A stretch of DNA of 64,000 nucleotides from Vulcanimicrobiota bacterium (GTDB lineage Bacteria; Vulcanimicrobiota; Vulcanimicrobiia; Vulcanimicrobiales; Vulcanimicrobiaceae), in NCBI GenBank assembly GCA_963714015.1, contig OY970223.1, forward strand, positions 1,664,001 through 1,728,000, given 5' to 3'. This document shows positions 56,655 to 62,813 of this stretch, one piece after another. The notes below the pieces were generated by a model. The model searched no databases and was not told the origin of the DNA. It worked only from the letters and a program-made list of their open reading frames with translations. The position numbers and the translations under genes are program-made. Positions within the stretch are counted from its first letter, which is position 1; every line of letters begins with the position of its first letter.

Positions 56655-56915
56655 GACGGCTCAAGACGCGCGAGAAGAGCTTATCTGCGACTGCGCAGGC
56701 GCCGGCGTCCGCGTCCGCTTGTTCGTTCTTCGATTCCTGCTCGCTGCGGCATTCATGATCCGATAGTTTCCCGAGCCTGGCGCCTGGGCCTGGCTTCGAC
56801 TTCAGCGCCGGCCGGACAAATGCGGGACGTTACTGCGCTTCGTCGGTTCGGCCGGAATGCGAACGGCGCTTGCGTCGTTAGTCACGAATCGTTAGTATTG
56901 CGCATTGGTACCGGC

Positions 56916-57905
56916 ATGCGGCTTTTGAAGCTCGCGGGCGCACTTGCGTTCGTGGTGACGGCGATCGCGGTAACGGATTGGCCCGCTGCCGCGCAGAGCG
57001 TTCCGGCGCCTTCGCCTTCGCCTTCGAACCGGCAAGATTTGCGTGACGCATGGTGGACTGGGCCAATGCTGGCGCCGTCGGCGGGCACGCTTCCCCGCGG
57101 GCACGTCTTGGTGGAACCGTACGTTTACGACGTTGCGCAGTACGGCAGTTATGATGGTAAGGGCGCGGTAAAAGGGACGGCACATTCCAACAGCTTCGGC
57201 TCGCTTACCTACATCATCTATGGGCTCGCGGATCGGTTCAGCGTCGGTGTGATTCCGACGTTCGGCTTCAATACGATTGCCGGCGGCGCAGGCAGTTCGG
57301 GAATTCACGCCGGCGATCTCGCCGCGCTTGCGCAGTACCGGATTGCGCTTTTTCGTCCAGGCAAGTGGATTCCAACGACTTCAGTGTCGGTGCAAGAGTC
57401 GTTTCCAACCGGCGCGTACGACAATCTCGGCGAACGCCCGGCGAATGGATTCGGCAGCGGCGCTTATACCACCACACTGTCCCTATATACTCAGACGTAC
57501 GTTTGGATGCCGAACGGCCGCATACTGCGCATGCGGCTCAACGCGTCTCGCACGTTTTCCGGCAATGCGCCCGTCGACGGCGTGAGCGTGTACGGAACCG
57601 GCCCCAATTTTCACGGATACGCAAAGCCCGGCGGAACGCTTACGCTGGACGAGGCGCAGGAATACAGCATCACCCGCAACTGGGTCTTTGCGCTGGACGT
57701 GGTTTATCATCACAGTGCCGCTACGCAAATATCCGGAACGACGCCGGCCGACTTGGGCCAAAGCGACGCTTACGAATTAGCGCCGGCCCTCGAATACAAC
57801 TGGACGTCGAACTGCGGCATACTCTTTGGAGTGCGCACGATACCGGCGGGGCTGAATACCTCTGCGACCGTGACCCCGGCTTTCGCCGTCAACATGGTTC
57901 GATAG
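56916..57905 (+). CDS. Outer-membrane beta-barrel transporter-like protein
   Basis: Signal peptide, PSPSP linker, WWTGP.LA, EPY, PTG.YD.L, APALEYNW. Confidence 0.7.
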   Translation: MRLLKLAGALAFVVTAIAVTDWPAAAQSVPAPSPSPSNRQDLRDAWWTGPMLAPSAGTLPRGHVLVEPYVYDVAQYGSYDGKGAVKGTAHSNSFGSLTYIIYGLADRFSVGVIPTFGFNTIAGGAGSSGIHAGDLAALAQYRIALFRPGKWIPTTSVSVQESFPTGAYDNLGERPANGFGSGAYTTTLSLYTQTYVWMPNGRILRMRLNASRTFSGNAPVDGVSVYGTGPNFHGYAKPGGTLTLDEAQEYSITRNWVFALDVVYHHSAATQISGTTPADLGQSDAYELAPALEYNWTSNCGILFGVRTIPAGLNTSATVTPAFAVNMVR

Positions 57906-57916
57906 GCGCCTAAAGG

Positions 57917-57949
57917 TGACATTGCCTGTCATATATCCCATGCTAGAGT
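57917..57949 (+). promoter_or_regulatory. TGACA-N5-TGTCA palindrome plus extended -10 (TGCTAGAGT)
   Basis: Seen directly upstream of the VOC gene. Confidence 0.55.
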
Positions 57950-57980
57950 GATAAAAAACAGAGACAAAAAGGAGAGGAAC

Positions 57981-58367
57981 ATGACCGCAAGTCAGACCAC
58001 CCCCACGGTCAAGGGCAAAATCACGGGGACCGATATCTCAGGATTCCTCGTGCGCGATGCGCAAGCCATGATCGCGTTTTATCGCGACGTTCTCGGGCTG
58101 CAGCCGACCGAGGTCGACGACCAAGGACGCGGCGCGGAATTTACCCTCGCCGACGGCACGACGTTCGGCGTGTGGAAGACGGACTCGGGCGAAACGGGCG
58201 GCTTCACCATGCTTGCCGTCGACGACATCCATGCCGCGCGCGACGCTATGGCCGCCAGGGGATTGCAGTTCAGCCCCATCGACGAGAGTCCGGTGTGCCA
58301 CATGGCCTTTGCCAAAGATCCGGAAGGCAACGCGATCATCATTCACGCGCGCAAACAGCGAGACTGA
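57981..58367 (+). CDS. VOC/glyoxalase family protein
   Basis: FYRDVLGL, AVDDI, DPEGN; SD AAGGAG. Confidence 0.9.
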   Translation: MTASQTTPTVKGKITGTDISGFLVRDAQAMIAFYRDVLGLQPTEVDDQGRGAEFTLADGTTFGVWKTDSGETGGFTMLAVDDIHAARDAMAARGLQFSPIDESPVCHMAFAKDPEGNAIIIHARKQRD

Positions 58368-58387
58368 ACTCGCTGCGGTCACGTCAA

Positions 58388-58418
58388 GACTCCGAGGCCG
58401 AGGGGCCTCGGAGTTTTT
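58388..58418 (+). terminator. Intrinsic terminator
   Basis: ACTCCGAGGCC-GAGG-GGCCTCGGAGT followed by TTTT. Confidence 0.85.
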
Positions 58419-58466
58419 GGCAAATGCGCCGCGCAATGAACGCGGCTCCCCGGGAGCCGCCGGAGG

Positions 58467-58798
58467 ATGCCCGTGATTGATCTTAAGACGAAGTGGATCT
58501 CAGCGCTGTCTTTCACGGTTTCGCCGGACGATCAGCCGCAATTAGCGCACGAAGCAGCTTTAGTGATGCAGCGCATCGTCCCCGTGCGAACGGGCTTCAT
58601 TCAAGGCGTCGTTATGGCAAACGAGCCACGCACGCAGCTGATCATCGTTTCCCAGTGGGAGTCTCGCGAAGCGTGGGCAGCCGCGCGGTGGGATGAAGGC
58701 ATCGCATCGGCGATTAGCCGTCTGGTTGAAAGTCGAAGACGTTCGAATTTCATACCTACGAACCCATTACGGTCGTTCGCGGACCTGCCGGTGATTAG
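58467..58798 (+). CDS. ABM (dimeric alpha-beta barrel) family protein (frameshift ~58734)
   Basis: GFIQG, VSQWESREAW; C-terminus KTFEFHTYE in the shifted frame. Confidence 0.7.
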
Positions 58799-58859
58799 CG
58801 CGCTGGTGGTCGCCTAGCAATAGTTCATAGCCCGCCAGGAACAGCGGGCCGGTTCCGTC

Positions 58860-58906
58860 CCAATGGTGATTGGCTAGCCGATACAGGCTAGCCAATTCTC
58901 CATTGG
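58860..58906. promoter_or_regulatory. Nested inverted repeat upstream of the lipopeptide gene
   Basis: ATTGGCTAGCC-GATACA-GGCTAGCCAAT flanked by CCAATGG/CCATTGG. Confidence 0.6.
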
Positions 58907-58934
58907 CCACCATGGCCGGAAGGACGGAACATTT

Positions 58935-59156
58935 ATGCGCAACCTCTTGCCCATTGCAGCGCTCGCGGCTTTAATCGGAACGCTGGCCGCGTGCGGCTCC
59001 GCCGACGTTCTCCCGCAAACTCGTCTTCAAAAGACTCCGCTCTCTCATCGCTACCCAAGCAATACCGGTAAGCGGTCCACCGGCAAGTCACCGATCATGC
59101 CGGATGTGGTTCCGACGCCGTCGCCGCCCGACTCGGGCGGTTCCATGCCGGGCTAG
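58935..59156 (+). CDS. Small lipoprotein/peptide precursor ending DSGGSMPG
   Basis: SD GGAAGGA; lipobox LAAC; 73 aa. Confidence 0.75.
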   Translation: MRNLLPIAALAALIGTLAACGSADVLPQTRLQKTPLSHRYPSNTGKRSTGKSPIMPDVVPTPSPPDSGGSMPG

Positions 59157-59176
59157 AGCCGGTCTTTTGGGCCTCG

Positions 59177-59212
59177 TGGCGGCGGGTAAGCACTAACCCG
59201 CCGCCATAATCT
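59177..59212 (+). terminator. Strong hairpin after the peptide gene (weak U-tract)
   Basis: TGGCGGCGGGT-8nt-ACCCGCCGCCA followed by TAATCT. Confidence 0.55.
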
Positions 59213-59219
59213 TCCCGAG

Positions 59220-60758
59220 ATGCCCAAAACGCGCCGGGTCGATCGATCGTGGGAATTCCGAATGTCCGCCGCTTTCGAAAGCGCCGAGTTTGGCGAAGCT
59301 TCGGCGATCTTCGTCGAAGCGGTGAAAAACGGCGCACGCCCCGACATTGGGACGACGCTCCTCCAAGGCCGCACGCTGCTCAAACTCGACGCGGACAAAG
59401 CTGTTCCGTTCCTACTGAAAAACCACGCGCGCGAAGCTTCCGGTGCGGTTCGCGGACGGTGGCATTTATATCTTGCAATTGGGTTTGCAAGATTGCGCGA
59501 GTTTGCACAGGCTGACGAGCATTTCGCCGCGGCGGAACGCGAGTTCAAAGGACGTCGGGAAGGTTTGGCCGAGATTTCCTATCAGCGCGTGCGCCGGTAT
59601 TTGCTCGAACAGGATATTCCGCGCGCGTGGCGTTTTTGGGATGAAGCGGCAAAAGATCCTTCGCGCCTCGGGGCGATTCGCGCAGAACAGCTGCGATCGT
59701 TTATCTATGCATTTGAAGAAAACTATGTCGAGCAGGCGCGCTGCGTCCTGAAGGTCCTGGATCTCATCGGCACCGATCGCCGATCTGCAATTGAGGAATG
59801 GTGCACCTCCGTCCATACTGCCTCCGTTCTCGCGCGAGAACTCTCCATGAAAGATCTCTGGGTGCGAGCCGAAGCTGAGGTCAACGCCGACGTGCAATGG
59901 CCGGAGTTTTATAGCGCCGCCAAATTCCAGGCGTTCAAGGCAGTGGGATGGTGCCGCGCGCTTCAGGGTGACGGCCTTGGATGTTTCCGGTATCTTCGGG
60001 CCGCGCAGCTTGCGGCGCCGTCGGCAGCGTATTCCGTCATCGTTTTGCTGGACCGGGCCTACTTCGCCGGGACTCTAGGTGAAGAGCGGTGGGCCGCAAA
60101 CGAACTAGCTTCAGCCGAGGAACTCGCCGGCGGCGTCGATTGGGATGCCACTACGGAGGACGAGCGCGTGGGCTTGCTGCTGCTGGCGCAGCTCAGCGCA
60201 CCCCTCGACAGCACTCGGGCGGCCTACTATTTGGCGCGCTTCAAAAACCTGGGACGATTGCGCTCGAATCTGCACCACTTTGCATTCGATCGACGCTTGG
60301 ATGCGATTGCGGCGTACAGCGCCGGCGTCGTGAAGAGCGTGGAGGGAGATGCGGAGCAAGCCCTCGAGCAATTTCGTTCGGCTTGGGCGACATTCGATCG
60401 CATCCGGTACGATTGGCGCGCGGGCCAAACGGCGATACAGCTTTTTAGGTTAACTCAAAAAAACCGCTGGCGTTTACTGGCTGAAGAGAAACTCGAGCTT
60501 TATCGGTTTTCGTGGCTGATTCGGGGGTTTGGCTCCGGCGCAGGCGACCCAGCGCATTCAGTACCGGCGCTGACGCCTATGCAGGATCGGATCTTCCGGC
60601 TGATTTGCCAGGGCCGCACGACCCAGCAAATCTGTACGGAACTAGGTCGCGCCGACAATACCGTGCGCAACCACGTGAAGGCGATATTCAAAGCGTTCGG
60701 CGTGAACACGCGAGCATCGCTGGTCGCCGAAGCCGTTCGCCGCGGTTTGGTGAGATAA
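59220..60758 (+). CDS. TPR-like helical sensor with C-terminal LuxR HTH
   Basis: LTPMQDRIFRLICQGRTTQQICTELGRADNTVRNHVKAIFKAFGV; ~440 aa Ala-rich helical N-terminus with no REC or ATPase motif. Confidence 0.85.
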   Translation: MPKTRRVDRSWEFRMSAAFESAEFGEASAIFVEAVKNGARPDIGTTLLQGRTLLKLDADKAVPFLLKNHAREASGAVRGRWHLYLAIGFARLREFAQADEHFAAAEREFKGRREGLAEISYQRVRRYLLEQDIPRAWRFWDEAAKDPSRLGAIRAEQLRSFIYAFEENYVEQARCVLKVLDLIGTDRRSAIEEWCTSVHTASVLARELSMKDLWVRAEAEVNADVQWPEFYSAAKFQAFKAVGWCRALQGDGLGCFRYLRAAQLAAPSAAYSVIVLLDRAYFAGTLGEERWAANELASAEELAGGVDWDATTEDERVGLLLLAQLSAPLDSTRAAYYLARFKNLGRLRSNLHHFAFDRRLDAIAAYSAGVVKSVEGDAEQALEQFRSAWATFDRIRYDWRAGQTAIQLFRLTQKNRWRLLAEEKLELYRFSWLIRGFGSGAGDPAHSVPALTPMQDRIFRLICQGRTTQQICTELGRADNTVRNHVKAIFKAFGVNTRASLVAEAVRRGLVR

Positions 60759-60984
60759 CAGGAAGGCTCGCCGAAAGGCGAGCCCTGCGCTGCCGTCGCG
60801 TATGCGGTTGCCCGCATACCGGGTGTGGGCGACGCTTTGCGCGGCACACTCACCGCATTTGCCCTCGTCCCAGCGATCGGACTCTTTAGATTCGGCGCTG
60901 TGTTTAGGCTACCTTGCAGAGGTATGGCGCCAGGAGTACCGCGCTAATTGCGAAAACAAGCATTAGCCGATTTCGGCCAAGCGA

Positions 60985-62242
60985 TTATGATTCTCGGGTG
61001 TGGTGCCGGGTGTGGGCGACCTCCGTCAGCCGATCGACGCGCTTCAATTCCGGGAACAGCTTGATCCACAGCCCGATCACGGCGAGCGTCGCAGCGCCTC
61101 CCAAAACGACTGAGGCTTGAGGGCCGATCAGCGCCGCTACGCCGCCGGATTCAAAGGCGCCCAATTCATTGGACGCGCCGATGAAGATGTTCTCCACGCC
61201 GCCGACTCGTCCGCGCAGATGGTTCGGCGTGCCGAGCTGAACCAAAGCGGAGCGCACGACGACGCTGACCATGTCGAAAGCGCCGGTGAGTGCCAGAGCA
61301 AAAACCGAAATTGCGAAATTGCGCGAAAGGCCAAAGGCGATAGTCGCAAGGCCAAACCCCGAAACACATGCAATGAGCAGCGGACCGGCACGGCGCGAGA
61401 TGCTGTGCCGCGCTATATATAGGGCAACGAGCGCCGCTCCAAAAGCCGGCGCCGCGCGTAGAATCCCGAACCCCGTTGCGCCGACGTGGAGCACGGCCGT
61501 TGCGAAAATCGGAAGCAGCGCCGTTGCTCCGCCGAACAACACCGCGAAGAGATCGAGTGAGACGGCGCCGAGAATGACGCGCCGTGAGAAGATGAAGCGG
61601 ATGCCTTGGACCGCTGCAACGAGCACCGGTTCGTCGTGCGCTTCGATTGCATGCGGTTCGAGCAGCGCGAACGCCATTGCGGCGACGACGTATGCTCCGG
61701 CCGCTGCAATGAACGCAAAGCGGGTTCCCAGCGCAATAAGCACACCCCCTACCGCAGGTCCTGCAATCCCGATGCAGCTGCGTTATCGACGAAGAGAACG
61801 CCTGAGCGCGGGCAAAAGATTGATGTGGTACGACGTTGATGAGCAACGAGCGCTGCGCCGGAATTCCGGCGGCATGCGCAATACCAGCTACGGCCACCGC
61901 CAAAAAATACCACGCGGCATCGCGGACGTGCACCGCGATCAGCACGGCGAATAGAGCCAGGCCGCACGCCTCGGCAATGGACGATACTACGCAGATAAGG
62001 CGGCGATCCGCGCGGTCGGCCAGCACGCCGGCCGGGAGCGCCAGAAGCAGCTGCGGCATGAACAGGATGAGGCCCACCAGCCCTAAGTCGAAGGCGCTAT
62101 GGCGCAGAGAGTAAATCTGCCAGCCGACAGCCGTGTCCTCGATGGTAAACGCCGCAACCGCGCTCTGACGCGCAAGAAAATATCGGTAGAATTCGGCGCC
62201 GAATACGGGTTTGGGCGAGCCGTGCGACGTAGGAGCGCTCAT
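60985..62242 (-). CDS. MFS transporter (EntS-like; frameshift ~61773)
   Basis: VGWQIY, AGVLADRADRR, SLDLFAVLFGGATALLP, RGRV, GASNELGAFESG. Confidence 0.88.
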
Positions 62243-62813
62243 GCGTAATTCTTTAACTGTAGTATTGTTTGCAGCCGCAGCCCTGCCCCTCAGCGCAATT
62301 GCCGCGATGCAAACGTGGACCGTCGACCCTGTGCACTCTACCGCCCAGTTCACAGCTCGGCATTTCGGAATCGTCCCGGTGATCGGAACCATTCCGATTC
62401 AATCAGCGGCCGTCAAACTCAACGAGGGGAGCCCGATCCCCGTATCAGTTTCCGCCATTCTCGATCCGACGCAGCTCGATACGCACAATTCGATGCGCGA
62501 CGGCGATCTCCGATCCGACCATTTTTTCGACGTTACGACGTATCCGGCAATGACCTTCAGCAGTACCAAGATAACCGGCACCGATCCTAAACAGTTCACG
62601 ATTCAAGGCGACCTGACGATGCGCGGCCAGTCGCATCCCGTAACCCTTGCTGCTCAAGTCATCGCTTCGGGAAAATCACCGAAGGGCCGTGAAATTATTG
62701 CATACGGTGCCACGGGTACCATCGATCGCACCCAATGGGGCATGACGTTCGGGCCGATGATCGTCGGCAACAGTGTCGACATCTCCTTGAATATCGAGGC
62801 CGACGGACCGTAG
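62241..62813 (+). CDS. YceI family protein
   Basis: WTVDPVHS, RDGDLRS.HFFD...YP, GDLTMRG, IDRTQWG. Confidence 0.93.
   Translation: MRNSLTVVLFAAAALPLSAIAAMQTWTVDPVHSTAQFTARHFGIVPVIGTIPIQSAAVKLNEGSPIPVSVSAILDPTQLDTHNSMRDGDLRSDHFFDVTTYPAMTFSSTKITGTDPKQFTIQGDLTMRGQSHPVTLAAQVIASGKSPKGREIIAYGATGTIDRTQWGMTFGPMIVGNSVDISLNIEADGP

Follow-up and report, generated by a model that had tools for sequence, protein, structure and literature searches.

A putative two-gene peptide-signalling cassette with a MalT-like sensor and a LuxR-type DNA-binding domain in Vulcanimicrobiota

A small peptide precursor and a helical-repeat regulator are encoded by adjacent genes in a 64,000-nucleotide stretch of DNA from a Vulcanimicrobiota bacterium (contig OY970223.1 of assembly GCA_963714015.1; Eremiobacterota is an alternative name of this phylum). 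This stretch, termed the window, spans positions 1,664,001 to 1,728,000 of a 3.56-Mb genome in a single contig, and the feature coordinates given here are window positions. An earlier, sequence-only reading had pointed to this gene pair as a candidate peptide-signalling system. Our analyses indicated that the pair is, on balance probably, a two-gene peptide signalling cassette that follows an RRNPP-like logic but combines a MalT-like sensor with a LuxR-type DNA-binding domain. Conservation of the gene pair, selection on a motif of the precursor at the protein level, tandem amplification of this motif, conservation of the operator and the fold of the regulator were each supported, and the signalling interpretation passed every in silico test that could be run. 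Peptide signals with cytoplasmic receptors are regarded as a hallmark of the Firmicutes and their phages. The peptide gene and the regulator gene are direct neighbours on the same strand, separated by 63 or 105 nucleotides (nt) according to the regulator start chosen. The features of the locus are as follows.

58852..58930, no strand: nested inverted repeat with three arm pairs, 5′ of the peptide gene (arm search; fold z of -6.6)
58869..58896, no strand: candidate operator with two GGCTAGCC boxes (58872-58879 and 58886-58893), their starts 14 nt apart (unique in the genome; recurs in relatives)
58935..59156, plus strand: putative pro-peptide gene of 73 amino acids (aa), with a lipoprotein-type signal peptide, linker and tail (open reading frame [ORF], rule-based scan, relatives)
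58992-58994, plus strand: codon for Cys20 of the 73-aa ORF
59130-59153, plus strand: conserved eight-residue tail of the 73-aa ORF (kept beside related regulators)
59177..59206, plus strand: GC-rich hairpin between the two genes (inverted-repeat search, fold)
59262..60758, plus strand: regulator gene, 498 aa from 59262 or 512 aa from the ATG at 59220 (ORF, public gene call P0001)
59262..60542, plus strand: predicted sensor domain, a superhelix resembling tetratricopeptide repeats (TPR), residues 1-427 of the 498-aa form (AlphaFold2 model, fold matches)
60576..60740, plus strand: C-terminal LuxR/GerE-type helix-turn-helix, residues 439-493 of the 498-aa form (Pfam, 1fse, structure matches)

The 73-aa ORF was present as the sequence-only reading had described it, with a lipobox, a basic linker and the quoted C-terminal tail. 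A rule-based scan detected an Arg in the n-region, a hydrophobic core and a lipobox Cys at residue 20; a basic, proline-rich middle section follows and then the tail, of the form D-x-G-G-x-x-P-G. Pfam listed no family for this product, and in the window's genome the motif was found near the end of a short frame at this locus only. When the product was used as a tblastn query, the alignments barely extended beyond the signal peptide and the tail. Comparison of the window with its closest relatives, whose regulators are 45 to 52% identical, detected a common signal peptide and the same D-x-G-G-x-x-P-G motif, joined by linkers differing in both length and sequence. The motif alone was conserved in the mature part of the precursors, the result for which the earlier reading had proposed to look. 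Among 25 copies of the motif, the two conserved Gly positions use all four Gly codons and Ser is encoded by both TCN and AGY codons; this synonymous variation indicates selection at the level of the protein rather than of a DNA or RNA element.

The motif, or a clade-specific variant of it, occurs in 1 to ~16 copies per precursor. Tandem units with variable spacers number two or three in relatives within the window's clade and two, three, five, seven or at least 14 in other clades, in which the unit mostly comprises an acidic residue, one or two small residues, two glycines and a proline; the units of one clade end in two prolines and a tyrosine. The C-terminal position claimed for the motif was confirmed for the window but did not extend to all relatives, in which the motif is often repeated and not always C-terminal. 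A regulator tree of 68 rows was constructed with support from the Shimodaira-Hasegawa-like approximate likelihood ratio test (SH-aLRT), and motif labels were computed from the data. The window's clade consists of four regulators (support of 100), all of which have a lipobox precursor and the same motif type. A motif type of its own was likewise observed for the proline-proline-tyrosine clade, for a clade with a large lipoprotein gene and for several two- or three-member clades, and paralogues within one genome carry different motif variants in G011, G033 and G034. Motif types track the regulator tree, a pattern consistent with co-diversification. Two unusual arrangements were also observed. 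At locus L051 (genome G006), one precursor with seven tandem units is followed by three regulator genes in a row, and L060 (G032) contains two neighbouring cassettes whose precursors have at least 14 identical nine- and eight-residue units without a Gly-Gly core.

An N-terminal leader followed by several repeated cores also speaks for a reading in which the small ORFs are multi-core precursors of modified or antimicrobial peptides and the regulator is a pathway-specific LuxR-type activator, comparable to the LAL (large ATP-binding LuxR-type) and LuxR regulators of biosynthetic clusters. The occurrence of LuxR-type regulators beside secondary-metabolite genes is well established. A scan of sixty flanking ORFs (57 from 14 related loci and three from the window) detected no modifying enzyme, protease or exporter conserved beside the cassette, the neighbours varying from locus to locus, and the leader is a lipoprotein or plain hydrophobic export signal and not a recognisable leader of a ribosomally synthesized and post-translationally modified peptide. 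This biosynthetic reading was considered the least probable of the rivals, with very little probability assigned to it. The cassette is a self-contained module. A double-glycine bacteriocin leader was also considered for the precursor and was dropped, as the Gly-Gly lies in the C-terminal part and there is no adjacent C39 transporter.

Relatives' DNA was obtained from 20 loci found by a genome search, 40 more places in related genomes and three paralogues in the window's genome; the genome set contained 73 regulator-like ORFs and the metagenome set 80 loci. An automatic scan covered the 450 nt upstream of each regulator on the same strand, with all ORFs of at least 350 aa in the window's genome serving as background. 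A small ORF with a hydrophobic N terminus was detected upstream of 31 of 70 regulators as compared to 165 of 1563 background ORFs. When a GG/PPY-type motif was also demanded, the counts were 24/70 and 17/1563, and with a repeated 5-mer they were 12/70 and 7/1563. An antisense control gave 9, 5 and 4 of 69 for the three criteria, the last of which is not independent because a tandem repeat in DNA yields repeats in whichever frame it is translated. The 69 non-duplicate regulators were then classified by eye from the listing of upstream ORFs. An export-type small ORF with the motif or with tandem units was assigned to 31 of them, while eight had a gene for a 320-346-aa lipoprotein instead of a small ORF (one of these, L014, being from a genome marked unpublished), three were ambiguous and one had a different, 149-aa lipoprotein. 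For the metagenome set, counts were restricted to non-redundant loci with enough upstream DNA, and a small motif ORF was present at 14 of the 18 loci whose regulator is at least 43% identical to that of the window. Small exported ORFs do, therefore, occur beside homologous regulators, as the earlier reading had anticipated.

The nested palindrome described by that reading, with two GGCTAGCC boxes in an 11-bp inverted repeat, was also present upstream of the peptide gene. The core inverted repeat has 11-nt arms (58869-58879 and 58886-58896) that are 100% complementary, with one box per arm. It is enclosed by a pair of 10-nt arms at 58860-58869 and 58897-58906 (90%) and then by an outermost pair of 9-nt arms at 58852-58860 and 58922-58930 (100%), and the purine-rich ribosome-binding stretch (58918-58924) is partly covered by the outer arm. 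The core palindrome has a single occurrence in the 3.56-Mb genome; a role as a REP (repetitive extragenic palindromic) or MITE-like (miniature inverted-repeat transposable element) repeat was dropped for this reason. A search of this genome with the two-box pattern detected one perfect site, four sites with one mismatch and 179 with two, and CTAG is rare, at 0.57 per kb. A reversed-genome control for the pattern was unusable, the reversed hexamer being a common GC-rich word. Two GCTAGC-type boxes, 13 to 14 nt apart and almost equally far from the start codon, were found in the window, L003 and L008, and the two-box site also precedes the peptide gene in most of the close metagenome loci. At loci with regulators 34 to 50% identical to that of the window, the sequence of the boxes is kept and the spacer varies, without compensatory changes. 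The equivalent position is taken by different palindromes in other regulator clades, which fits a DNA-binding specificity diverging along with the regulators. A GATAAT-type -10 element directly precedes the boxes in 9 of 22 related loci, and a TTGACC -35 element lies 17 nt upstream of the -10 element in 4 of the 22. This position indicates that the boxes of these relatives lie at or just after the transcription start, and an operator just downstream of the -10 element favours a repressor released by the peptide over an activator. Conservation before relatives' peptide genes supports the proposal that the palindrome is an operator; the remaining part of that proposal, an effect of the peptide on DNA binding, is one that we infer.

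The same sites can be read at the level of RNA. According to this reading, the palindrome would act mainly as a 5′ stem-loop, either masking the ribosome-binding site or making the transcript more stable, the regulator would bind elsewhere and the adjacency of the two genes would reflect co-transcription only. The boxes of relatives follow the -10 element and would thus be transcribed, and the outer arms in the window pair with the purine-rich stretch before the start codon. Folded as a single strand, positions 58840-58940 gave -52.7 kcal/mol versus -31.4 +/- 3.2 for 200 shuffles (z of -6.6), with no shuffle as good, and many relatives have one more small GC-rich hairpin, located after the boxes and before the start codon. 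Against these points, conservation of the box sequence with a variable spacer and no compensatory change is expected of a protein-binding site, different palindromes occupy the equivalent place in other regulator clades and Rfam gave no match at E values up to 1 in 58400-61200. A mainly RNA-level role was, hence, judged very unlikely, and the operator reading was retained. RNA-level control may nevertheless add to the operator. The second short GC-rich hairpin was observed in the window (58897-58930), L003, L008, L028, L070, L075 and L077, the version in the window being formed by the outer arms pairing with the purine-rich ribosome-binding stretch. There is also a degenerate third copy of the half-site just past the palindrome, at 58902-58914, with 77% pairing over 13 nt with 58884-58896.

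The hairpin that had been noted between the two genes was confirmed at 59177-59206. Its arms (59177-59190 and 59193-59206; 14 nt, 93%) gave an intergenic fold of -32.9 kcal/mol (z of -4.2), no run of T residues follows it and a consensus scan of 58700-59300 did not list a canonical terminator. A comparable stem of different sequence is predicted for the same gap of L003, L004, L005, L007, L008 and L027. The hairpin is possibly a partial terminator or a stabiliser, and may set the ratio of peptide to regulator transcript.

For the regulator, the sequence-only reading had described a 512-aa protein with a TPR-like domain and a LuxR-type helix-turn-helix, and without receiver, autoinducer-binding or ATPase motifs. 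The domain assignment was upheld, and the protein is probably shorter. The ORF extends for 512 aa from the first ATG (59220), while the public gene call, P0001, has 498 aa and begins at the ATG at 59262; the latter is probably the start, as it gives a better fit in the alignment with relatives. The only Pfam family above its cut-off was GerE (PF00196, residues 450-503; E of 3.1e-07, 30.4 bits against a cut-off of 23.5). Receiver, autoinducer-binding and ATPase families were not listed by Pfam at E values up to 0.1, NCBIfam contained no ATPase family for this protein and its TraR-type matches covered the helix-turn-helix only and were far under their cut-offs. A profile search of the PDB detected the GerE structure 1fse (E of 5.6e-13) and, as weak TPR matches, consensus TPR proteins (E of 1.3e-08). 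The Rap, Rgg, NprR, PlcR, PrgX and AimR families were listed neither by Pfam and NCBIfam at E values up to 0.1 nor by the PDB profile search, and the Pfam family TPR_MalT was not matched.

An AlphaFold2 model was generated from an alignment of 50 relatives (A1) and had a mean predicted local distance difference test (pLDDT) score of 93.3 and a predicted template modelling (pTM) score of 0.82. The model comprises ~22 helices in a TPR-like superhelix (residues 1-427), a poorly predicted linker and a four-helix LuxR-type domain (439-493). The helical repeat runs from residue 1 and there is no N-terminal NOD/AAA ATPase module, so that the architecture is, as modelled, that of MalT minus the ATPase module; longer members of the family have a doubled sensor and, again, no ATPase. 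In a structure search, the top match was RapI (4i1a_B; Z of 21.8, root mean square deviation [rmsd] of 4.8 over 332 residues), followed by domain III of MalT (1hz4_A; Z of 21.5, rmsd of 6.2 over 343 residues, 12% identity). Further matches included a phage Rap with bound peptide (Z of 18.4), AimR (17.7 and 17.4) and NprR (16.8), and the DNA-binding domains of NarL, DegU and EvgA matched the C-terminal domain at rmsd values of 1.2 to 1.6. Foldseek against the PDB gave generic TPR matches only, with phage Rap at rank 42. The predicted fold is, therefore, compatible with a peptide receptor without singling one out. Prediction of a complex between sensor residues 1-430, supplied with an alignment, and the last 30 residues of the peptide precursor gave a score of 0.02 and a mark of 0.32, which speaks neither for nor against binding.

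From this point we infer export, cleavage, uptake and binding of the peptide, the sign of regulation and targets beyond the operon. The 73-aa product would be exported by the Sec pathway and cut at Cys20 by lipoprotein signal peptidase, leaving the product tethered to the membrane. Extracellular proteolysis would then release a short peptide with the conserved C-terminal motif, which an oligopeptide permease would re-import. Binding of the peptide to the groove of the helical-repeat sensor would alter the occupancy of the two-box operator by a dimer of the LuxR-type helix-turn-helix, closing a feedback loop on the peptide-regulator operon; a regulator that acts as a repressor and is released by the peptide is favoured. 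The 73-aa product satisfies the rules for a Sec-type export signal and a lipobox, the genome has one LspA (lipoprotein signal peptidase) gene and lipidation is predicted. SBP_bac_5 binding-protein genes of the Opp/Dpp type are present at about ten places in this genome. The lipobox to which the earlier reading drew attention is a feature of the window and its clade but not of the family, as many relatives have an uncharged hydrophobic leader without Cys. In these non-lipobox precursors (L070-L088 and other metagenome loci), the first 17 residues are conserved and the n-region has no positive charge, an uncommon trait in a Sec signal peptide. These precursors may leave the cell by a route of their own, or the leader may itself have a function.

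Several observations weigh against the signalling interpretation. Nothing recognisable was found upstream of 26 of the 69 regulators classified by eye, and among metagenome loci with a regulator less than 43% identical to that of the window a motif ORF was present at only 4 of 35 and absent from 31. Two whole regulator clades are without a small ORF. A well-supported clade of seven regulators has, in the position of the peptide gene, a gene for a 320-346-aa lipoprotein with DUF4382 and CarboxypepD_reg domains, which fits a view of the upstream gene as no more than the product under regulation. Common descent gives related genes shared features, and agreement between motif types and regulator clades is not by itself proof of co-adaptation of motif and regulator. 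A pattern scan of the genome found no second strong operator, and hence no output beyond the operon is visible; a consensus scan found no sigma-70-type promoter in 58700-59300, leaving the window's own promoter unreadable. Generic TPR proteins (Pins, LGN, APC subunits and OGT) gave Z values of 18.7 to 20.6, near that of RapI. The genome also encodes Omp85, indicating that an outer membrane probably lies between the peptide and the medium; LptD was not found in this genome, for which the completeness estimate is 89.6%.

Some of these points support the main rival, in which the regulator is an ordinary local transcription factor that responds to an unknown cytoplasmic ligand or protein and the small exported protein is its output and not a signal. 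Such an output might be a lipopeptide at the surface or in the periplasm, with a repeated motif that binds a metal, part of the cell wall or another protein of the envelope. The single strong operator of the genome sits before the small gene, as expected of an output, and around a third to a half of the members of the regulator family, many regulators in all, have no recognisable small ORF. The clade of seven has a full-size DUF4382 lipoprotein gene with its own conserved repeat before TATAAT, and domain III of MalT, a small-molecule sensor, matches the regulator about as well as RapI does (Z of 21.5 versus 21.8). The N-terminal tether of the DUF4382 lipoproteins, just after the lipobox, also contains a motif similar to that of the small peptides, suggesting that the two kinds of upstream gene are linked in evolution, in either direction. 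An output would not, however, readily account for selection confined to an eight-residue motif in proteins whose linkers and lengths vary freely, or for amplification of this unit to at least 14 copies with variable spacers, an arrangement typical of multi-copy precursors of short products. Paralogous cassettes in one genome, moreover, keep distinct motifs, for which an envelope component has no evident need. The output reading explains the conserved and amplified eight-residue unit less well. It was considered unlikely, albeit a serious contender, and the signalling interpretation was preferred.

Some loci of the large-lipoprotein type and some paralogues have further peculiarities. Upstream of the DUF4382 genes of L036, L038 and L067 there is a conserved inverted repeat specific to this clade, CGTAAACG ... 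TTTACG, which overlaps the -35 position and is followed by a TATAAT or TATACT -10 element. L067 (G000:C1:3420383-3426932) contains two tandem cassettes, each with a gene for a DUF4382 and CarboxypepD_reg lipoprotein (327 and 337 aa) and then a regulator paralogue, the second regulator being split into ORFs of 318 and 219 aa. At L069 (G000:C1:1317539-1320901), a regulator paralogue in the same genome as the window is broken into consecutive ORFs of 250, 244 and 117 aa, with no small exported ORF seen upstream, and is probably a pseudogene.

In order to determine the distribution of the sensor, a profile of 46 sensor domains (A2) was searched against cluster representatives (among 1.84 billion). 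Matches were obtained for 708 representatives at E values of 1e-30 or less, 9,875 at 1e-10 or less and 65,962 at 1e-3 or less, the last band surely including unrelated TPR proteins. Within the phylum, 250 of 401 genomes had a sensor match at an E value of 1e-20 or less, a tally that includes genomes marked unpublished. Without the window's own genome, these matches were distributed as 245 of 296 genomes in the window's family and 3 of 5 and 1 of 30 genomes in two others; none of the 69 genomes of the remaining 18 families had a match at this threshold. The sensor family is, therefore, nearly confined to one family in this sample of the phylum, with as many as four copies, or more, in one genome. 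A small number of public records of regulator-type proteins bear the names of other phyla, for which binning errors are possible.

These data led us to a broader proposal, which is tentative and in which our confidence falls a little short of even. One family of the Eremiobacterota, a largely uncultured and probably diderm phylum, would have evolved its own large and fast-diversifying repertoire of peptide channels. The units of this repertoire would be portable cassettes, each with a precursor of one to many copies, a MalT-like and LuxR-type cytoplasmic receptor and a clade-specific palindromic operator, that arose independently of the RRNPP systems of the Firmicutes. The peptides would perhaps derive from the tether of a DUF4382 lipoprotein, and several orthogonal channels would coexist in one genome. 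If true, a peptide-signalling logic with a cytoplasmic receptor has evolved more than once, a first handle is provided on social behaviour in the Eremiobacterota, an abundant phylum of soil and peat, and a class of LuxR-type peptide-responsive regulators is added to the parts list for synthetic circuits. Each cassette predicts a cognate peptide, receptor and operator, which can be checked with synthetic peptides and recombinant protein, free of culture. Full-text literature searches returned neither a peptide-receptor pair of this architecture nor an account of peptide quorum sensing in the Eremiobacterota.

The neighbours at 56820-58817 and 62211-62813 look ordinary, are not conserved with the cassette and include a 361-aa protein without a Pfam family, a glyoxalase-family protein, a YceI-like protein and a small ABM-like protein that falls slightly under the Pfam cut-off. 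Directly 3′ of the regulator, on the minus strand, an MFS_3/MFS_1 transporter gene (60985-62392) is split into two overlapping ORFs in different frames, with the N-terminal part in 61166-62392 and the C-terminal part in 60985-61743, due to either a frameshift or an assembly error.

Comparison with known systems places the cassette closest in its logic to the RRNPP or RRNPPA systems (Rap, Rgg, NprR, PlcR, PrgX and AimR). As in those systems, a small exported pro-peptide is encoded beside a cytoplasmic receptor of ~250-500 aa with helical repeats, the active motif would be located within the C-terminal portion of the precursor and one genome can contain several paralogous cassettes that have diverged. 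The best fold matches of the regulator include RapI, phage Rap, AimR and NprR (Z of 16.8 to 21.8). Some precursors have tandem copies of the motif, and the portions of PMC11343458 dealing with Phr pro-peptides describe tandem duplication for these also. The part of PMC10075063 that sets out an operational RRNPP signature of five points reports a survey that scanned Firmicutes and viruses only; all five, namely, size, export signal, receptor length, TPR repeats and adjacency, were found for the pair in the window. The 73-aa precursor is within the pro-peptide range of 10 to 100 aa (those of relatives have 41 to 154 aa), and a regulator of 498 aa is within the receptor range of 250 to 500 aa, the length being 512 aa if the ATG at 59220 is used. 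The cassette differs from the RRNPP systems in the helix-turn-helix, which is C-terminal and of the LuxR/GerE type here and N-terminal and of the XRE type, or lacking (Rap), in the latter; in the absence of a sequence-family match of the regulator to RRNPP receptors; in the host, which is an Omp85-encoding lineage of the Eremiobacterota and not a Firmicute; and in the leader, which is a lipoprotein signal here and uncharged and hydrophobic in many relatives. Convergence with the RRNPP receptors is at least as likely as homology.

A helical-repeat sensor followed by a C-terminal LuxR-type helix-turn-helix is shared with MalT and the LAL regulators, and look-alikes in a protein atlas include clusters with TPR_MalT at scores of 0.90 (all matches having scores of 0.90 to 0.91), which serve as leads only. 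Unlike those proteins, the regulator has no N-terminal NOD/AAA ATPase and begins with the repeat domain. MalT, furthermore, senses maltotriose and not a gene-encoded peptide. The sex pheromones of enterococci are cut from lipoprotein precursors, taken up by an oligopeptide permease and sensed by the cytoplasmic receptor PrgX or TraA, but the pheromone is part of the signal peptide itself, whereas the motif here belongs to the mature C-terminal region or, in DUF4382 lipoproteins, to the tether. Proteins combining TPRs with LuxR_C-like domains are tabled for actinobacterial genera, without ligands, in the tabulated material of PMC4748050. The acyl-homoserine lactone receptors of the LuxR type likewise have a C-terminal GerE/LuxR helix-turn-helix and a palindromic site before the signal gene with autoregulation, as proposed here, and are distinguished by an autoinducer-binding domain and an adjacent synthase gene, neither of which is present in this cassette, and by a ligand that is proposed here to be a peptide. 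We class the system as a variant of peptide signalling through a cytoplasmic receptor and not as a proven RRNPP member.

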